Shown here one piece after another: positions 1 to 44,330 of a stretch of DNA of 64,000 bases. Under the pieces are notes generated by a model. The model was not told where the DNA came from. It saw only the letters and a list, made by a program, of their open reading frames with translations, and made no database searches. Made by a program: the position numbers and the translations under genes. Source of the stretch: Solirubrobacterales bacterium (lineage in GTDB: Bacteria > Actinomycetota > Thermoleophilia > Solirubrobacterales > 70-9); NCBI GenBank assembly GCA_035712025.1, contig DASTBO010000138.1, forward strand, positions 4,935 to 68,934. Reading direction: 5' to 3'. The first letter of the stretch is position 1; each line of letters begins with the position of its first letter.

Positions 1-579
1 GACGTAGGGGCGGTCGTCGAAGGTGCCGACGTAGGTGCGGTCGCCGCGCTCGATCAGCTGCAGCTGGGCGTCTTCGGAGACCTCCTGGCTGAAGCGGACG
101 CAGCGGTAGCAGAGGATGCAGCGCTCGCGGTCGATCGCGACCAGCGGCGAGAGCTCGATCGGCTTCTCGAAGTGGCGCTTTTCGTCGATCACCCGGCTGC
201 GCCCGGGGCCCCAGCCGTAGGAGATGTCCTGCAGCGGGCATTCGCCGCCCTTGTCGCAGACGGGGCAGTCGAGCGGGTGGTTGACGAGGAGGAACTCGAC
301 GACCGCGCTCTGCGCCTCCTTGACCTGCTCGGTGCGGGTGTGGACGACCATCCCCTCGCGCACCGGGGTCGAGCAGGAGGTCTGCAGCTTCGGGATCCCC
401 TCGATCTCGACCAGGCACATGCGGCAGGCGCCGACCGGGTCGCCGAGTTTCGGTTCGTAGCAGAAGTAGGGGATCTCGACGTCGCCCTTGCGGGCGGCGT
501 CGTGGAGCATCTCGCCCTCGACCGCGGCGACCTCGCGGCCGTCGATCGTGATCGTCACCTCGCGTCCGGCCCGGCTCAC
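1..579 (-). CDS. nuoG: NADH-quinone oxidoreductase subunit G, N-terminal part (rest beyond window edge)
   Basis: Not in the ORF track because it runs off the edge. The minus frame is open 579->1 and reads VSRAGREVTITIDGREV..GACRMCLVEIEG..HPLDCPVCDKGGECPLQD..CILCYRCVRF (Fe-S Cys motifs of NuoG). GTG at 579 overlaps the nuoF stop (GTGA). Confidence 0.85.
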   Translation of the reverse strand, partial: MSRAGREVTITIDGREVAAVEGEMLHDAARKGDVEIPYFCYEPKLGDPVGACRMCLVEIEGIPKLQTSCSTPVREGMVVHTRTEQVKEAQSAVVEFLLVNHPLDCPVCDKGGECPLQDISYGWGPGRSRVIDEKRHFEKPIELSPLVAIDRERCILCYRCVRFSQEVSEDAQLQLIERGDRTYVGTFDDRPYV

Positions 580-1904
580 GTCGAGGCCCCCAGCGTCTCC
601 GGCGCGCCGCGGACGACGGCGTGCGGATCGAGGACCAGCTCCGGGTCGGCCATCACCCGCTCGAACTCGTCCCTGAACTTGGCGACCATCGCCCCGACCG
701 GCATCGCCATCGAGTCGCCGAGCACGCAGAGGCAGTGGCCGATGATGTTCTGCTGGACCGAGCTGACGATGTCGAGGTCCATCGGCGTCGCCTCGCCGCG
801 CACCATCCGCTCCAGCATCTTCACCGTCCAGTTGGTGCCCTCGCGGCAGGGGACGCACTTGCCGCAGGACTCGTGGTGGTAGAAGCGCGCCGTGCGCAGC
901 GCCAGGTGCGGGATCGAGACCCGGTCGTCGCAGACGATGATCGAGCCCGAGCCGAGCATCGAGCCCGCCTCGGCCATCGCCTCGAAGCTGTAGGGGAGGT
1001 CGAGGCCCTCCTCGGCGGTGAGGACCGGGGAGGAGGAGCCGCCGGGGAAGAAGGCCTTGATCTCGTGCCCGTCCTCGGGGCCGCCGGCGAGGTCGCAGAT
1101 CAGCTCCCGGGTCGGGATCCCCAGCTCGACCTCGTAGTTGCCCGGGCGCTTGACGCCGCCGGAGATCGAGACCACCTTGGTCCCCGGCGACTGCTCGGTG
1201 CCGAAGCCCTTGAACCACTCGGCGCCGTGGCGGACGATGTGGGGGACGTTGGAGAGCGTCTCGACGTTGTTGATCAGCGTCGGCCCGCCGTAGAGGCCCT
1301 GCACCGCGGGGAAGGGCGGCTTCAGGCGCGGGTTGCCGCGCTTGCCCTCCAGCGCGTCGAGCAGGGCGGTCTCCTCGCCGCAGATGTAGGCGCCGGCGCC
1401 GCGGTGGACGACCAGCTCGAGGTCGCGGTGGCAGCCGAGGATGTTCGTGCCGAGGTAGCCCGCCTCGTAGGCCTCGGCGACGGCGGCGTCGAGGATGTCG
1501 GCCTGCTCGTCGTACTCGCCGCGGATGAAGATGAAGGCGTGGCCGGCGTCGGCGGCCAGCGCCGCGATCGCGATCCCCTCGATCAGCTGGTGCGGGTTGC
1601 GCTGCATCAGCTCGCGGTCCTTGAAGGCGCCGGGCTCGGACTCGTCGGCGTTGCAGCAGAGGTACTTGGCCATGTCGCCGCGCGGCAGGAAGGAGGCCTT
1701 TTTGCCCATCGAGAAGCCGGCGCCGCCGCGGCCGCGCAGGCCCGAGTCTTCGAGCTCCTTGAGGACCTCGTCCTGCTCCATCTCCTTGTAGGCGCGCTCC
1801 AGCGTCTCGTAGCCGCCGGCCAGCCGCCGGTAGCCGTCGAGCGTGCGCAGCGCCGGGTCCTCGGCGTGCTCGAGCAGGACCCGCTTCTCGCGCGGGTCAG
1901 CCAT
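576..1904 (-). CDS. nuoF: NADH-quinone oxidoreductase subunit F
   Basis: 442-aa ORF with GLRGRGGAGF NADH/FMN motif and ESCGKCVPCREG 4Fe-4S motif; sits in nuoA-G order. Confidence 0.95.
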   Translation of the reverse strand: MADPREKRVLLEHAEDPALRTLDGYRRLAGGYETLERAYKEMEQDEVLKELEDSGLRGRGGAGFSMGKKASFLPRGDMAKYLCCNADESEPGAFKDRELMQRNPHQLIEGIAIAALAADAGHAFIFIRGEYDEQADILDAAVAEAYEAGYLGTNILGCHRDLELVVHRGAGAYICGEETALLDALEGKRGNPRLKPPFPAVQGLYGGPTLINNVETLSNVPHIVRHGAEWFKGFGTEQSPGTKVVSISGGVKRPGNYEVELGIPTRELICDLAGGPEDGHEIKAFFPGGSSSPVLTAEEGLDLPYSFEAMAEAGSMLGSGSIIVCDDRVSIPHLALRTARFYHHESCGKCVPCREGTNWTVKMLERMVRGEATPMDLDIVSSVQQNIIGHCLCVLGDSMAMPVGAMVAKFRDEFERVMADPELVLDPHAVVRGAPETLGAST

Positions 1905-2598
1905 CGAAGCCGTCCTCCCCTCCGCTGACGGGACGATTACCGCTTACATCAAGCGCTTTTCGTCCCGTCGGCGGTTCGGTGTCGCCGGCCAAGGGGCGCT
2001 TGGCGAGGGATTTCGCCGGGAGGACCTCCTCGCCGGCGCGCAGCTGGCCGATCGCGATCCCCGCCTCGGCCGCCTCCAGCGGCCCGTAGTAGCGCTGGTC
2101 GATCGAGGCCATCGGGGCGATGTCGCAGGCTCCGAGGCACTCGAACCCGGTGACGAAGAAGTTGGCGTCGTCGCCCTCGGCTGCCGCTTCGAAGGCCTCG
2201 AGCAGGCGGTCGCCGCCGCGCATCCAGCAGCTGATGTTGGTGCAGACCTCGATCCGGTGGGTCCCGACCGGCGAGGTGTGCAGCAGGTCGTAGAAGCTCG
2301 CGACGGACTCAAGGTAGGCGGGGGTGACCCGCATCACCGCGGCGGCCTGGCGGATCCCCTCCGGGGTGCACCAGCCGTAGAGCTCCTGCACCGCCCAGAG
2401 CGCCGGGATCGAGGCCGAGCGGCGGTCCGGGTAGCGGCCCATCAGCGTCTCGATCCGCTCCCGCAGCTGCGGCGGGCAGTCGACCTCGTGCAGCTCGGGG
2501 ATCTGCTCCTCGGAGCGGTCGGGGACCCGGCCCTCGCGGACCGCGGGGTCGACTGGGAGGTTCGGGTTGTGGATGCCGGGACCGTCGACGGGGCTCAT
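1897..2598 (-). CDS. nuoE: NADH-quinone oxidoreductase subunit E (with C-terminal extension)
   Basis: Internal ATG at 2598 overlaps the nuoD stop (ATGA). Thioredoxin-like 2Fe-2S motifs CTNISCWMRG..CLGACDIAP. The N-terminal part of the 453-aa track ORF is an Arg/Pro-rich artefact. Confidence 0.9.
   Translation of the reverse strand: MSPVDGPGIHNPNLPVDPAVREGRVPDRSEEQIPELHEVDCPPQLRERIETLMGRYPDRRSASIPALWAVQELYGWCTPEGIRQAAAVMRVTPAYLESVASFYDLLHTSPVGTHRIEVCTNISCWMRGGDRLLEAFEAAAEGDDANFFVTGFECLGACDIAPMASIDQRYYGPLEAAEAGIAIGQLRAGEEVLPAKSLAKRPLAGDTEPPTGRKALDVSGNRPVSGGEDGFDG
1927..1969. repeat. 43-nt palindromic repeat, copy 1 (inside nuoE 3' coding end)
   Basis: GACGGGACGATTACCGCTTACATCAAGCGCTTTTCGTCCCGTC; 34/43 identical to the reverse complement of 33587-33629; shares the 3' flank GGCGG with that copy. 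Confidence 0.8.
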
Positions 2599-3803
2599 CG
2601 GTCGACCCCCCCGAGGATCGGGTCGAGCATCCCGAGGCTGGCGATCATGTCGGCGACGTAGCCGTCGACCGCCATGTCCCGGAAGGACTGCAGGTTGACG
2701 AAGGAGGGGTCGCGGAAGTGGACCCGGGCCGGCTTCGCCGAGCCGTCGGCGAGGACGAAGCAGCCGAGCTCCCCCCGCGGGCCCTCGATCGAGTAGTAGA
2801 CCTCGCCGGGCGGCACCCGGTAGCCCTCGGTGACCAGCTTGAAGTGGTGGATCAGCGACTCCATCGAGGTCGAGAGCTCCGAGCGCGGCGGCAGCACGTA
2901 CTTGCGGTCGTCGGCGATGAACGGCCCCTCGGGCAGCGCCTCGAGGCACTGGGCGACGATCCGCGCCGACTCGACCATCTCCGCCACCCGCACCCGGTAG
3001 CGGTCGTAGTTGTCGCCGACCGTGCCGACCGGGATCTTGAACTCGACCTCGGGGTAGGCGAGGTAGTCGAAGGCCTTGCGCAGGTCCCAGGGGTCGCCGG
3101 CGGCGCGCAGCAGCGGCCCGGTCACGCCCAGCTCCAGCAGCCGCTCGCGGGAGACGACCCCGGTCCCTTTGGTCCGCTGCAGGAAGACCTCGTTGCGGTC
3201 GAGCAGGTCCTGGTACTGGCCGACCCGGATCGGCATTTCCTCGGCGAAGGCGCGGCACTTGGCCTCGAAGCCGACGGGGATGTCCTCGATCACGCCGCCG
3301 ACCTGGAAGTAGCGGGTGTGCATCCGCTGCCCGGTCGCCATCTCGAACAGGTCGAGGATCTTGTCGCGCTCGCGGAAGCAGTACCAGAGCATCGAGATCG
3401 CGCCGAGGTCGAGCGCCGTGGTGCCGAGCCAGACGAGGTGCGAGTGGATCCGGTTGAGCTCGAGGAAGAGCGTTCGCAGGTACCTGGCGCGGGGCGGGAT
3501 CTCGAGGTCGATCAGCCGCTCGACCGCGCCGCAGTAGGCCTCCATCTGGAAGAAGTAGGAGACGTAGTCCATCCGCTCGACGAAGGGGATGACCTTCCAG
3601 TAGCTCTTGTCCTCGCAGGACTTTTCGATCCCGGTGTGGACGTAGCCGATCACCGGCCGCAGCTCGCGCACCATCTCGCCTTCGAGGTCGACGACGAGGC
3701 GGAGGACGCCGTGGGTCGCCGGGTGGTGCGGCCCGACGTTGACGGTCATCAGCTCGCGGTCGCGGTCGGGCGCCTGCTCGGCGAAGGCGGTCGTCTCAGT
3801 CAT
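2595..3803 (-). CDS. nuoD: NADH-quinone oxidoreductase subunit D
   Basis: 402 aa, MTVNVGPHHPATHGVLRL.. typical 49-kDa subunit; overlaps nuoC and nuoE junctions. Confidence 0.95.
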   Translation of the reverse strand: MTETTAFAEQAPDRDRELMTVNVGPHHPATHGVLRLVVDLEGEMVRELRPVIGYVHTGIEKSCEDKSYWKVIPFVERMDYVSYFFQMEAYCGAVERLIDLEIPPRARYLRTLFLELNRIHSHLVWLGTTALDLGAISMLWYCFRERDKILDLFEMATGQRMHTRYFQVGGVIEDIPVGFEAKCRAFAEEMPIRVGQYQDLLDRNEVFLQRTKGTGVVSRERLLELGVTGPLLRAAGDPWDLRKAFDYLAYPEVEFKIPVGTVGDNYDRYRVRVAEMVESARIVAQCLEALPEGPFIADDRKYVLPPRSELSTSMESLIHHFKLVTEGYRVPPGEVYYSIEGPRGELGCFVLADGSAKPARVHFRDPSFVNLQSFRDMAVDGYVADMIASLGMLDPILGGVDR

Positions 3804-4314
3804 AGCGCTGCTCCGAGTAGGTGAAGGCGACCGGCTCGCCGCCGATCGGGAAGTCGCGCCGCTGCGGCCAGCCGACGTAGTCGTCGGGCAGCAGGATCCG
3901 GGTCAGGTTCGGGTGGCCGCGGAAGACGATCCCGAAGAAGTCGAAGGCCTCGCGCTCCTGCGCCTCGGCGGTCGGGAAGAGCCCGACGCAGGAGTCGATC
4001 TCCGGCAGCTCCTCGGCGCCCGGGTCGGCCAGCATCGCCTTGACGCGGACGCGCTCGACCCGGTCGCGGTTGATCAGCTCGTAGTGGACGCCGAAGCGCG
4101 GTTCGTTCGGCAGGTAGTCGGCGGCGTGGAGGCTGGAGAGGAAGTCGTAGCGCTGGCCCGGCTGGTCGCGGAGCCAGGTCAGGACCTCGATCACCCGCTC
4201 GGGGTCGGCCAGCAGCGCCGCCTGGGCGCGGTCGTAGGAGGTCGCGAGCACGGCACCGGGGCAGTCGCGCTCGATTTCCCCCCGGATCAGCTCCAGTCCG
4301 GGGGCGTCAGGCAA
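3796..4314 (-). CDS. nuoC: NADH-quinone oxidoreductase subunit C
   Basis: 172 aa 30-kDa subunit-like sequence (..[25 protein letters not shown]..) between nuoB and nuoD. Confidence 0.9.
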
Positions 4315-4924
4315 GGGTCAGCTCCCGCGCCTCCCGGTAGGCCTCGGCGGCCTCCGGCGTCGGTTCGCTGCGCGGCCCGCCGCGCGCCCACTCCTCGGTC
4401 CCGTAGGCGTCGTAGCGCTGGCGCCAGCTCTGGTCCGGGCTGCCCTGGATCTTGCGCTGCAGCTTGGTGAAGCCGTAGAGGACCGCCTCCGGCCGCGGCG
4501 GGCAGCCGGGCACGTAGATGTCGACCGGCATGAACTTGTCGGCGCCCTGGACGACGGCGTAGTTGGCGAACATCCCCGCCGAGGAGGAGCAGGCGCCCAT
4601 CGCCATCACCCACTTCGGCTCCAGCATCTGGTCGTAGAGGCGGCGGACGACCGGCGCCATTTTGATGCTGACCCGGCCCGAGAGGATGATCAGGTCGGCC
4701 TGGCGCGGGGAGGCGCGCAGCGCCTCGGCGCCGAAGCGGGCGAGGTCGTAGCGGGCGGTGACGATCGAGATCGGCGCCTCGATCGCGCAGCAGGCGAGGC
4801 CGAAGGTGAGCGGGAAGATCGAGTTCGACCGGGCCCAGTTCTGGACCTTCTCGAAGGTGGTGGTGACGACCCGCTCTTCGACGTAGCGCTCGAGGTCCTC
4901 GCCCTCGAGGTCGCCGCGCAGCAT
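4307..4924 (-). CDS. nuoB: NADH-quinone oxidoreductase subunit B
   Basis: ATG at 4924 inside the 361-aa track [32 protein letters not shown]2-cluster motifs. The upstream part of the ORF is Arg/Pro-rich and overlaps nuoA. Confidence 0.85.
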
Positions 4925-4965
4925 CGCCCGGGCGTCCACCTGCTTCTCTCGCAGGCTGCGGCGCT

Positions 4966-5343
4966 CTACCTCCAATCCAGGGCCCCCTTGCGCCAGACGT
5001 AGACGAAGGCGACGAGCAGGAGGACGACGAAGGTGATCAGCTCGCCGAGGACGAAGACGCTGTCGGCGTCCTTGAGGATCGCCCCGATCGGATAGAGGAA
5101 GACGACCTCGATGTCGAAGAGGATGAAGAGCATCGCGACGAGGTAGAAGGTCACCCCGAAGCGCAGCCCCTTGGTCGGCTCGACCGGGATCCCGGACTCG
5201 TAGGGCTCGCCCTGGCGCCTGCTCGCCGCGGTCGGGCGCGCCGGCTTCTTCGGGCCGAGCAGGTGGTTCAGCATCGCGAAGACGCTGCCGACCGTGAGGC
5301 CGAGGAAGGCGAAGACGAGGATCGGGAGGTAGGTCTTGAGCAC
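4966..5343 (-). CDS. nuoA: NADH-quinone oxidoreductase subunit A
   Basis: 125 aa, three TM segments, ..[17 protein letters not shown].. motif; GTG start; first gene of the operon. Confidence 0.9.
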
Positions 5344-33586: not shown

Positions 33587-33629
33587 GACGGGCCGAAAAC
33601 CGCTCTGCCTGAGCGGAAATCGTCCCGTC
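33587..33629. repeat. 43-nt palindromic repeat, copy 2 (intergenic, 5 nt downstream of epimerase stop)
   Basis: GACGGGCCGAAAACCGCTCTGCCTGAGCGGAAATCGTCCCGTC; folds as 6 bp + 3 bp + AAA/AAA internal loop + 6 bp + 5-nt loop. Confidence 0.85.
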
Positions 33630-37561: not shown

Positions 37562-38672
37562 GGCGACCGAGCACCAGGGCCGGGCGCGGGTGGCGCTGAG
37601 CGCGGCGCTCGCCGAGCCCTCCCACGCCTACCTCTTCCGCGGCCCGCGCGGGTCGGGGAAGCGGGCGGCGGCGCGCTCCTTCGCGGCCGAGATCCTCGCC
37701 GCCGCGGCCGCCGACCCCGAGGACGCGCGGCGGCGGGCGCTGCTCGACCCCTCGCCGCATCCCGACCTCGTCTGGCTGGCGCCGACCGGCGCCCAGCACA
37801 TGGTCGAGGAGGTGCGGGAGCGGGTGATCCGCGCCGCCGCCTACCGGCCCTTCGAAGGCGGCCGGCGGGTGTTCGTCGTCGAGGCGGCCGAGGCGATGCG
37901 CGACGAGAGCCAGAACGCGCTGCTGAAGACGCTGGAGGAGCCACCCGGGTTCGTCCACCTGATCCTGCTCAGCTCCGACCAGGAGGGCCTGCTGGAGACC
38001 GTCGCCTCCCGCTGCCAGCCGATCGATTTCGCCCCCCTTCCCGCGGAGGTGCTCGAACACGAGCTTGCCGACGGGCCGGAAACCGCTCTGTCTGAGCGCA
38101 AATCGGCCCGTCGCGACGGGGAGGTCGCCGCCGCGGCTCGCCTCGCCGCCGGCGACCTCGAGCGGGCGCGGCTGCTGCTGAGCGAGCGGGGGCGCGAGCT
38201 CCGCGCCGAGGCCGAGCGCTGCGTTACCGCCGCCCTCGCCGGGGAGTGCGCGGGCGCTCCCTGGAAGGCGCTCCTCGACGACGCACAGACCGCCGGCGCC
38301 GACGTCGAGGCGGCGGCCCGCGAAGCGCTCGAGGAGGAAGCGAAGGCGGGGATCAAACGCAGCGCCAAGGAGATCGCCGACGGCGCCAAACGCGCCGGTC
38401 GCCGCCGCCGCACCGAGATCCTCACCCTCGCCTACGAGCTCTGCGCGGCCTGGCTGCGCGATCTCGCCGCCGTCGCCGCCGGCGCCGAGGAGGTCGCCTT
38501 CAACCGCGACCGGCTCGAGCAGCTGCGCGCCCAGGCCGAGGGGCTGGATGCGGCCAAGGCCCGCCGCGGCGCCGAGCTCGTGCAGGAGACCCGCCGCGGC
38601 CTCGACCTCAACGTCAGCGAGGAGCTGGCGTTAGAGGCGCTTTTCTTCCGGCTCGAGACGCTGCTGGCCTGA
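37539..38672 (+). CDS. holB: DNA polymerase III delta' subunit
   Basis: 377 aa; HAYLFRGPRGSGKR, ..QNALLKTLEEPP.., SRCQ motif; carries the repeat insertion at codons 178-192. Confidence 0.85.
   Translation: MSTSPLLEATEHQGRARVALSAALAEPSHAYLFRGPRGSGKRAAARSFAAEILAAAAADPEDARRRALLDPSPHPDLVWLAPTGAQHMVEEVRERVIRAAAYRPFEGGRRVFVVEAAEAMRDESQNALLKTLEEPPGFVHLILLSSDQEGLLETVASRCQPIDFAPLPAEVLEHELADGPETALSERKSARRDGEVAAAARLAAGDLERARLLLSERGRELRAEAERCVTAALAGECAGAPWKALLDDAQTAGADVEAAAREALEEEAKAGIKRSAKEIADGAKRAGRRRRTEILTLAYELCAAWLRDLAAVAAGAEEVAFNRDRLEQLRAQAEGLDAAKARRGAELVQETRRGLDLNVSEELALEALFFRLETLLA
38070..38112. repeat. 43-nt palindromic repeat, copy 3 (in-frame inside holB)
   Basis: GACGGGCCGGAAACCGCTCTGTCTGAGCGCAAATCGGCCCGTC; 39/43 identical to 33587-33629 in the same orientation; GACGGG repeated at 38115-38120. 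Confidence 0.85.
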
Positions 38673-43835: not shown

Positions 43836-44305
43836 GGCGCCGCCGGGCCGCTCCCCCGGCGCCCCCGCGCCCTCGCCCCAGCTCCTACTACCTGGTCGCG
43901 GGCGTCGCGCTGGATGCCGAGCTGGAGCGGCTGCGGGCGCTGCCGGTCTTCGCCGACGGCCCGCTGCCCGAGCGGCGGCCGCAACTCAAGGTGCGCCGCG
44001 CCAGCCGCAAACCCAACCGCCTCGGCTTCGCGGTCCCGAGCGAGTTCCGCCTCTCGGTCACCGCCTATCCTGGGATCCGCCCCGGCGACGTGCTCGAGAC
44101 CCTGCTGCACGAGCTGGTCCACCTCCACGTCGGCCGCGCCGCCGAAGCCCACGCCTGGCACGGCCCCACCTTCAAGCGGGTCCTCAACCGCGCCATGCGC
44201 GAGGCCTACGGAATGCGGATCCCAACCCCGCGCGCCACCCTCCACGGCCCCTACGCCGAGGCAATCGAGGCCTCAATCCGCCGAGACCGCAAAAAAGCAC
44301 CTTGA
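43814..44305 (+). CDS. SprT-like zinc metallopeptidase-domain protein
   Basis: 163 aa; HELVHLH (HExxH) in SprT-like context; start uncertain (GTG 43814 or 43823, overlapping the nei end). Confidence 0.55.
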   Translation: MPAVPRLRRRRAAPPAPPRPRPSSYYLVAGVALDAELERLRALPVFADGPLPERRPQLKVRRASRKPNRLGFAVPSEFRLSVTAYPGIRPGDVLETLLHELVHLHVGRAAEAHAWHGPTFKRVLNRAMREAYGMRIPTPRATLHGPYAEAIEASIRRDRKKAP

Positions 44306-44330
44306 GGGTGCCTTTTCGCGGTCTCGGCGG

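Follow-up and report, generated by a model that had tools for sequence, protein, structure and literature searches.

Does the 43-nucleotide (nt) palindrome that lies at the nuoE/nuoF junction of a Solirubrobacterales bacterium belong to the NuoE coding sequence, does it act in the expression of the nuo operon, or has it been inserted there? We addressed this question in a 64,000-nt stretch of contig DASTBO010000138.1 (the window), in the genome from which it comes (G000; 2.69 Mb in 139 contigs, 70.3% G+C, 93.8% complete) and in 185 genomes of the same soil actinobacterial genus. Comparison of these sequences supports the conclusion that the palindrome is an inserted repeat and not ordinary coding sequence. 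It is most probably a solo copy of a dispersed repeat (F1) that resembles the repetitive extragenic palindromic (REP) sequences, is tolerated within the variable tail of NuoE, and has a partner enzyme other than the REP-associated tyrosine transposase (RAYT).

Re-reading of the sequence confirmed all that the initial annotation had stated about the site itself. The palindrome (GACGGGACGATTACCGCTTACATCAAGCGCTTTTCGTCCCGTC, 1927-1969 in the window sequence) ends 22 nt ahead of the nuoF ATG (1904-1902), and between the two lies the purine tract GGAGGGGAGGA (1923-1913), which had been taken for the nuoF Shine-Dalgarno (SD) sequence. It folds into an outer stem of 10 bp without mismatch and an inner stem (CGCTT/AAGCG) closed by a 5-nt loop, and the flanks CCGCt (1922-1926) and GGCGG (1970-1974) add four pairs and lengthen the structure to 53 nt. 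Structure prediction over the site agreed with the stable hairpin proposed there: as minus-strand RNA the 43-mer and the 53-mer have folding energies of −25.5 and −34.1 kcal/mol, respectively, and the 101-nt surroundings gave a fold z of −3.3 versus shuffled sequences. The features concerned are the following.

1897..2598, minus strand: nuoE, 233 amino acids (aa), overlapping the nuoD stop codon as ATGA; thioredoxin-like 2Fe-2S domain (Pfam) at residues 50-180.
576..1904, minus strand: nuoF, 442 aa, whose ATG at 1904 overlaps the nuoE stop codon as ATGGCTGA.
1900..2016, minus strand: C-terminal tail of NuoE, residues 195-233 (39 codons), with a surplus of about 54 nt (18 codons) over 61-nt empty junctions.
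1927..1969, minus strand: core of the F1 repeat, 43 nt; the mRNA-sense strand reads GACGGGACGAAAAGCGCTTGATGTAAGCGGTAATCGTCCCGTC, in AAA..AAA orientation.
1922..1974, minus strand: extended hairpin, 53 nt (CCGCC, core, AGCGG).
1913..1923, minus strand: SD-like purine tract, the first two G of which (1923-1922) are paired in the extended stem.
33587..33629, unstranded: second F1 copy of the window, intergenic, 5 nt past the end of one gene and 26 nt ahead of the start of the next.
38070..38112, plus strand: third F1 copy of the window, within holB and in frame.

The repeat family to which the palindrome belongs is defined here by the pattern GACGGGMCGA-N23-TCGKCCCGTC. G000 contains 25 copies, each of 43 nt, most of them flanked by cCGCC and GGCGg; three lie inside the window (at 1927, 33587 and 38070), for which the expected count of exact matches in shuffled versions is 0.00. 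All are built from an outer stem of 10 bp (GACGGGMCGA/TCGKCCCGTC), an A-rich internal loop of 2-3 nt, and a variable inner stem and loop (5-7 nt). Direct comparison bore out the reported identity of 34/43 between the nuoE copy and the reverse complement of the copy at 33587 (29/43 in direct orientation), as well as the GGCGG 3′ of both. Across the 185 congeners we counted 0-111 F1 copies per genome, versus 0-2 matches of a control pattern. A search of Rfam 15 returned only sub-threshold, miRNA-like noise, with best scores of 11-19 bits versus gathering thresholds of 43-268.

Twelve of the 25 copies are translated in frame within genes (including lipB-like, pheT-like, ABC-ATPase and holB genes), and the G+C content at third codon positions (GC3) in the gene frame is 0.83-1.0 on both sides of the copy. 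Seven of them, nuoE among these, encode peptides of the form PTGRKPLxxSGNRPV and four encode RRDENRSxxAEIVPS; the holB copy is read in a third frame (DGPETALSERKSARR), in agreement with the earlier statement that it and the nuoE copy (..PPTGRKALDVSGNRPVSGG..) are translated differently. All 11 asymmetric translated copies carry AAA..AAA on the sense strand, so that K, E, N or R rather than F or I is encoded, whereas intergenic copies have no orientation bias, which points to a filter acting at the protein level.

At the nuoE site the palindrome covers residues ~210-224 (PTGRKALDVSGNRPV), and the similarity of NuoE to the solved protein of Mycolicibacterium smegmatis (8e9g_E) ends at residue 209 (..RPLAGDTEP), where the palindrome begins. 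The GC3 of its 14 codons is 5/14, that of the whole gene 0.91. The NuoE tail had been described as unusually long; this holds within the genus (median 37 aa in filled genomes versus 21 aa in the others), but in the order as a whole it does not, since tails of up to 86 aa occur. In one locus from another family of the order (L022, genome G028), the nuoE frame runs without a stop codon into nuoF, forming an apparent NuoE-NuoF fusion.

The junction was then compared throughout the genus by a BLAST search of the 185 genomes, followed by retrieval of 95 junctions (L-numbers denote retrieved loci and G-numbers genomes). The palindrome was present in none of the first 17 congeners compared, in which NuoE ends either as ..RGLAGDx* (13 aa) or as ..RPLAGDTPxPGGxGA* (about 21 aa). 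Among the 95 junctions, 19 are filled with F1, always at the identical nucleotide, after GAC ACN NNN NNN (g/t)CC. In 18 of these the copy is read in one common frame and the stop codon still overlaps nuoF; the nineteenth is probably an artefact of the frame anchor. Some palindrome is found at 22 of the 95 junctions (19 F1 and 3 others, at least three families in total), and at 73, one remnant included, it is absent. All 22 of the retrieved 44-nt junctions (TGATG) are without a hairpin.

The three junctions filled by other families include L036 (G194), with a 40-nt palindrome (GTGAACGATT..AATCGTTCAC) at the identical position, whose pattern has 12 matches in G194, 11 of them apparently real members. 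Another is L057 (G085), with a palindrome of about 47 nt (GTTCCCAGGG..CCCTGGGAAC), and G193 carries another palindrome as well. Two junctions (L046 of G075 and L049 of G069) contain one F1 copy nested in another, in frame, which brings them to 166 and 163 nt and the tails to 55-56 aa. In L027 (G006) only a leftover, GAC + TCGGCCCTC followed by GACCGGAGG, was found, which indicates that the element was lost through an internal deletion. The nuoE gene of G006 also appears to be frame-shifted, its match being in two pieces.

In the 19 orthologous nuoE copies the outer arms are near-invariant, while the inner 23 nt vary from species to species with pairing kept. In their alignment 75.8% of the cells are paired and both sides have changed in 54 cells, a score matched in 0 of 500 shuffles; positions 11-12/32-33 are mainly unpaired A.A. 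The encoded peptide, in contrast to the arms, is variable among the filled genomes. An ordinary coding segment had been expected to keep its peptide and let the palindrome erode, and comparison of the NuoE C-termini gave the opposite result. The suggestion that this is an inserted element is thus upheld: most relatives do not have the segment and, where they do, palindrome and arms are kept and the peptide is not. The mismatches at pairs 2-42 and 3-41 are also instructive, since 14 are C.A or A.C in the sense RNA versus 2 that are G.U. Such C.A and A.C mismatches correspond to wobble pairs on the antisense strand, and therefore pairing, if it matters at all, is better kept on the template strand.

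Both turnover and vertical descent are visible at the nuoE site. Turnover is seen in the remnant, the nested copies and the replacement by another family. Descent is seen in odd arm mutations and flanks common to the sisters L037/L052 and L035/L040, and in a site-specific CCTGAG loop that seven genomes have in common. On a tree of ~960 flanking bases the filled state requires 15 changes, and the well-supported branches demand at least three. A single ancestral insertion followed by simple vertical descent was rejected, the approximately unbiased (AU) test excluding the filled genomes as a single clade (p 1.5e-53), with recombination as a possible alternative. The site is filled only where F1 is abundant: the 19 filled genomes contain 14-73 copies (median 43) and the 76 others a median of 6, and the junction is filled in 0 of 38 sampled genomes with at most 5 copies, although kin among these are not independent. 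At the lipB-like site of G000 (C125:42624-42666), at least 45 genomes could be aligned over the full length, the subject spans being 240-294 nt. The alignments were judged from the spans only, and some of the genomes (e.g. G011, G043 and G192) have no canonical F1 match. Such apparent inserts make it probable that persistence at a site is a trait of the family and is not peculiar to nuo.

The candidate partner of the repeat was found on contig C84 of G000, where two F1 copies ~950 nt apart frame a minus-strand open reading frame of ~290 aa (the cassette gene, C84:4623-5492), with a GC3 of 0.76 versus ~0.95 typical of G000 genes. Its product matches Pfam DUF559 at 8.5e-8 and, more weakly, MTES_1575 and AbiEi_1; no NCBIfam model matched, and a sequence search against solved structures gave nothing significant. 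An AlphaFold2 model built on an alignment of 30 orthologues (predicted local distance difference test score 83.9) was used for a fold search. This search paired the first ~190 residues with the AbiEi antitoxin 6y8q (E 2.9e-6) and the last ~95 with the catalytic domain of the homing endonuclease I-Bth0305I, Vsr and NGO0050 (including 3r3p and 1cw0). Residues E231, D233 and H238 (LIVEADSRRVH) are invariant in the 30 orthologues. On this model the protein appears to be an AbiEi-like DNA-binding module fused to a nuclease of the Vsr/DUF559, PD-(D/E)XK type; DUF559 was grouped with Vsr in a survey of PD-(D/E)XK enzymes (PMC3424549).

All 30 orthologues examined, drawn from 30 species, have F1 near the gene ends, and 28 of them have it on both sides (a contig end truncates one locus), 26-50 nt ahead of the aligned start and 1-51 nt past the aligned end. 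Both framing copies are in the AAA..AAA orientation with respect to the cassette gene, i.e. direct, and are usually near-identical to each other. The neighbouring genes are homologous on both flanks at all 30 loci, and the best E values over the 185 genomes are bimodal, which sets a single orthologue apart from the paralogues. An orthologue is present in 60 of the 185 genomes, and in 59 of those F1 exceeds 6 copies (median 35); the median in the 125 genomes without it is 3. At the syntenic site G009 is empty, while L175 (G096) and L176 (G185) have solo palindromes of other families. In G146, which keeps 59 copies, the site (L178; C1, ~1666100-1666200) holds a solo F1 and no gene, as expected after recombination between two direct copies.

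The cassette gene is not the only one of its kind. G000 encodes 13 AbiEi/DUF559 paralogues, most of them with a palindrome of their own, 37-48 nt long and of like build, just upstream; nearly every DUF559 paralogue has one at a distance of 0-130 nt, and the same arrangement was found in G134, G146 and G008. The contigs of G000 that carry such pairs outside the window are C133, C10, C101, C53, C103, C31, C62, C124 and C20. These palindromes are themselves members of dispersed families of 5-27 copies each in G000.

GAGACCGCAAAAA..: 27 copies, one of them at window 44283-44325.
CCGGTCATTTG..: 8 copies.
GCGGCAGAGCTTTT..: 6 copies.
GGCGTTCGTCCTTTCC..: 5 copies.
GTTTCCATCC..: 5 copies.
CGTGTCTGAG..: ~8 copies.
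44283-44325 of the window: non-F1 palindrome of 43 nt, GAGACCGCAAAAAAGCACCTTGAGGGTGCCTTTTCGCGGTCTC, from a family of ~27 copies, one of which lies just upstream of the DUF559 paralogue on C103.

Several contigs of G000 end inside GAGTCCGCGAAAA repeats, which shows that the repeats break the assembly.

A further link between the nuoE site and the cassette is provided by the inner sequence. Eleven genomes have a filled nuoE site as well as a cassette, and in 9 of them the nuoE copy resembles the genome's own cassette most closely in its inner 23 nt, with a mean identity of 16.7/23 versus 9.6/23 to cassettes of other genomes. This signal is due in part to the shared ancestry of close genomes. Four genomes (G000, G125, G110 and G111) have in common a homologous right flank of 25 nt, which makes orthology the simplest reading of their nuoE copies; each nevertheless carries the flavour of its own genome. 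The local family may have supplied new sequence to fixed copies, or the site may have been emptied and refilled repeatedly; either course would need an active process.

We lean towards a mechanism in which the cassette protein would recognise the F1 arms and would spread and homogenise the family through cutting and repair from other copies. Recognition of the arms followed by such repair would explain how orthologous nuoE copies come to have the inner sequence of their own cassette, and a nuclease is a plausible mobilising or homogenising agent. A more specific form of this proposal, which we put forward tentatively and do not favour over its negation, is that the protein is an active palindrome-specific nuclease that recuts fixed copies, whose inner sequence is overwritten during repair, in a homing-like propagation independent of RAYT. 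If this were true, essential genes (nuoE, holB, lipB, pheT) would be periodically broken and repaired at their F1 sites, and shared "hot" sites would be refilled by the palindrome and nuclease at work in the lineage concerned.

Several observations weigh against the reading of the repeat as a mobile family with this partner. Among the 125 genomes without the orthologue, F1 exceeds 6 copies in 50 and reaches 30 or more in 19, which indicates that F1 does not depend on the gene today. In three single-contig genomes with 40-59 F1 copies, ~30 DUF559 paralogues were recovered with their loci and none is framed by F1. The comparison defined no transposition event, target-site duplication or excision footprint. 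The size of the insert is itself ambiguous because the tail is of low complexity: relative to empty junctions it amounts to ~54 nt in the G000 lineage and to 48 nt in another. Resolution of the flanking-base tree is poor and repeated gains could be simulated by recombination, for which reason insertion events were not counted. The congeners, moreover, are not independent, so that p-values overstate the evidence. Finally, selection for the hairpin itself could account both for the long persistence at the site and for the conserved pairing.

This last point leads to the question of what the element does to the nuo operon. According to a crude gene call based on GC3, the operon occupies the minus strand, with nuoA at 4966-5343, nuoB at 4307-4975, nuoC at 3796-4314 and nuoD at 2595-3803, followed by nuoE and nuoF as listed above. 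In-frame read-through of the palindrome means that NuoE still stops at the codon overlapping nuoF. Lying within a translated frame, the hairpin would have to be melted by elongating ribosomes, and the 14-18 added hydrophilic residues would sit in the variable tail of NuoE. It could refold behind a ribosome that has reached the nuoE stop codon with the SD tract at its mRNA exit, and initiation of nuoF at the overlapping ATG, by termination-reinitiation, should thus remain unaffected. Occlusion of the SD tract by the hairpin was considered and rejected: over the 25 nt that lead from the element up to the ATG, the predicted unpaired fraction is 0.28 if the 43 nt are present and 0.29 if they are removed. 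On these grounds the element at nuoE is probably a tolerated passenger. The role in nuoE/nuoF translational coupling or mRNA processing suggested in the initial annotation found no support in this accessibility, in the 22 of 22 hairpin-free 44-nt junctions, or in the way in which filling tracks F1 abundance.

Selection of the hairpin as an mRNA device, which would enforce coupling by keeping the 30S subunit from entering independently, pause ribosomes or shield the mRNA on its upstream or downstream side from RNases, nevertheless has some points in its favour. The hairpin is stable, and its end coincides with the edge of the nuoF ribosome-binding site. Palindromes from at least three families are found at precisely this junction, in 22 of the 95 genomes, and pairing in the inner stem survives changes on both sides. 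Yet none of the 38 sampled genomes poor in F1 (5 copies or fewer) keeps a hairpin, and the nearest relatives as judged by flanks (L105, L080 and L003) have the 44-nt junction without one. Predicted accessibility of the SD tract and ATG is the same with and without the element, the stem-base mismatches (14 C.A/A.C versus 2 G.U in the sense RNA) favour wobble on the antisense strand, and the apparent filling of the lipB site in at least 45 genomes makes persistence probably family-wide; we therefore regard such a device as rather unlikely. AbiEi is autoregulated through binding to inverted repeats in its own promoter, and the palindromes might by analogy be immobile operators of the AbiEi-like protein (a host regulon, or sites that organise the nucleoid), with the nuoE copy as a regulatory binding site. 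The AbiEi-like fold of the N-terminal 190 residues and the palindrome 0-130 nt upstream of nearly every DUF559 paralogue are consistent with this, as is the strict length of 43 nt with a variable interior, which would fit a dimer reading two arms. Operators would not, however, be expected in frame inside unrelated conserved genes (12 of 25 copies), nor to vary from 0 to 111 copies among congeners. The nested copies, the remnant, the solo copies left after gene loss and the invariant nuclease motif of the protein also speak against operators, and this explanation appears improbable.

Two further explanations can be dealt with more briefly. The hairpin is G+C-rich, as that of an intrinsic terminator or attenuator within the operon would be, and one terminator-like site was found, but on the plus strand (1941-1955), antisense to nuo. 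The mRNA strand reads AGCGGAGGGG directly after the hairpin, without a U run, and no terminator was found on that strand; the hairpin also lies in a translated frame, and the operon continues with the overlapping nuoF and nuoG, which makes termination here very improbable. The plus-strand site (CGCTT-ACATC-AAGCG, then CTTTTCG) fits the terminator consensus, and an F1 copy in this orientation could stop antisense transcription. As for ordinary NuoE coding sequence that is palindromic by chance, an open frame ending at the usual overlapping stop codon is what would be expected. To this we give practically no credence in view of the occurrence of 25 copies in the genome, intergenic as well as in three reading frames, the absence of the segment from 73 of 95 junctions, arms that are conserved over a peptide that is not, and a GC3 of 5/14 in a gene with 0.91.

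The value of the nuoE copy, read as an inserted F1 repeat, lies in its use as a marker. A universal, alignable junction is empty, filled by F1, filled by another family, doubly filled or reduced to a remnant across 95 congeners, and in flavour its filled copies track the nuclease cassette that lies elsewhere in their own genome. Taken together, the junction and the cassette flavour make testable a long-standing question, namely how REP-like repeats without a RAYT spread and stay alike. Solo F1 copies were traced into essential genes (nuoE, holB, lipB and pheT) and over the 185 congeners, and they carry a warning for annotation: C-terminal "extensions" and surface loops can be the product of repeats in these genomes.

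How does F1 compare with known systems? Miniature inverted-repeat transposable elements are defined by terminal inverted repeats, a target-site duplication and a related autonomous insertion sequence with a transposase. F1 has clear inverted termini; comparison of filled with empty junctions, whose tail is of low complexity, fixed no target-site duplication. A search for a longer insertion sequence with F1 arms 0.2-5 kb apart (11-mer, one mismatch allowed) gave hundreds of chance matches in this 70% G+C genome. The Rickettsia palindromic elements (RPEs; PMC10969869) are likewise in-frame palindromes in unrelated, often essential genes and add a tolerated peptide segment. They differ in being ~100-150 bp long with a conserved peptide per family, whereas F1 is 43-53 nt long, keeps its arms and is read in three frames, in a free-living actinobacterial genus of high G+C content. 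Considered by itself, the nuoE copy adds one case to the in-frame palindromic insertions already familiar from RPEs and from intragenic REPs.

The CGTC-tagged REPs (Di Nocera et al. 2013, PMC3733652) reportedly have no dedicated transposase, occur as in-frame intragenic copies, many of them in replication and repair genes, and different REPs have been reported at one site of one gene in related species. By definition they have an unpaired CGTC at one end, an 8-9-bp stem beginning with A-T, a 4-5-nt loop and a CCA-like tail; Actinobacteria are absent from the text of that paper. F1 resembles them in its CGTC end, its intragenic copies and its lack of a transposase, but its CGTC is paired and stands at both ends, its stem is G+C-rich with 10 bp and an additional inner stem, and it has a candidate partner enzyme.

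In organisation F1 resembles the REP/REPIN-RAYT systems (REPtrons) of Proteobacteria (PMC3116915, PMC3337134, PMC3733652). Both consist of short palindromes in tens of copies, mostly between co-directional genes. In both, a vertically inherited partner gene, present once, is flanked by repeats of its own family, a genome has several pairs of repeat and enzyme, and the repeats outlast loss of the gene. F1, however, has no Y1 (IS200/IS605) transposase in the 19 genomes of the genus that were searched: the RAYT family (PF01797) was not found in G000 and 18 congeners, including single-contig genomes with 40-42 copies, while control genomes were matched. An AbiEi-Vsr/DUF559 gene is framed instead, and our literature search found no paper linking DUF559 to palindromic repeats. 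F1 also lacks the 5′ GTAG tag, beginning with GACG and ending with CGTC; its framing copies are direct and not inverted, and about half of its copies are translated inside genes. In its logic F1 is best read as a REP-type partnership of repeat and enzyme that does without the defining RAYT enzyme or GTAG tag, with the nuoE copy as an ordinary, tolerated solo member of it.

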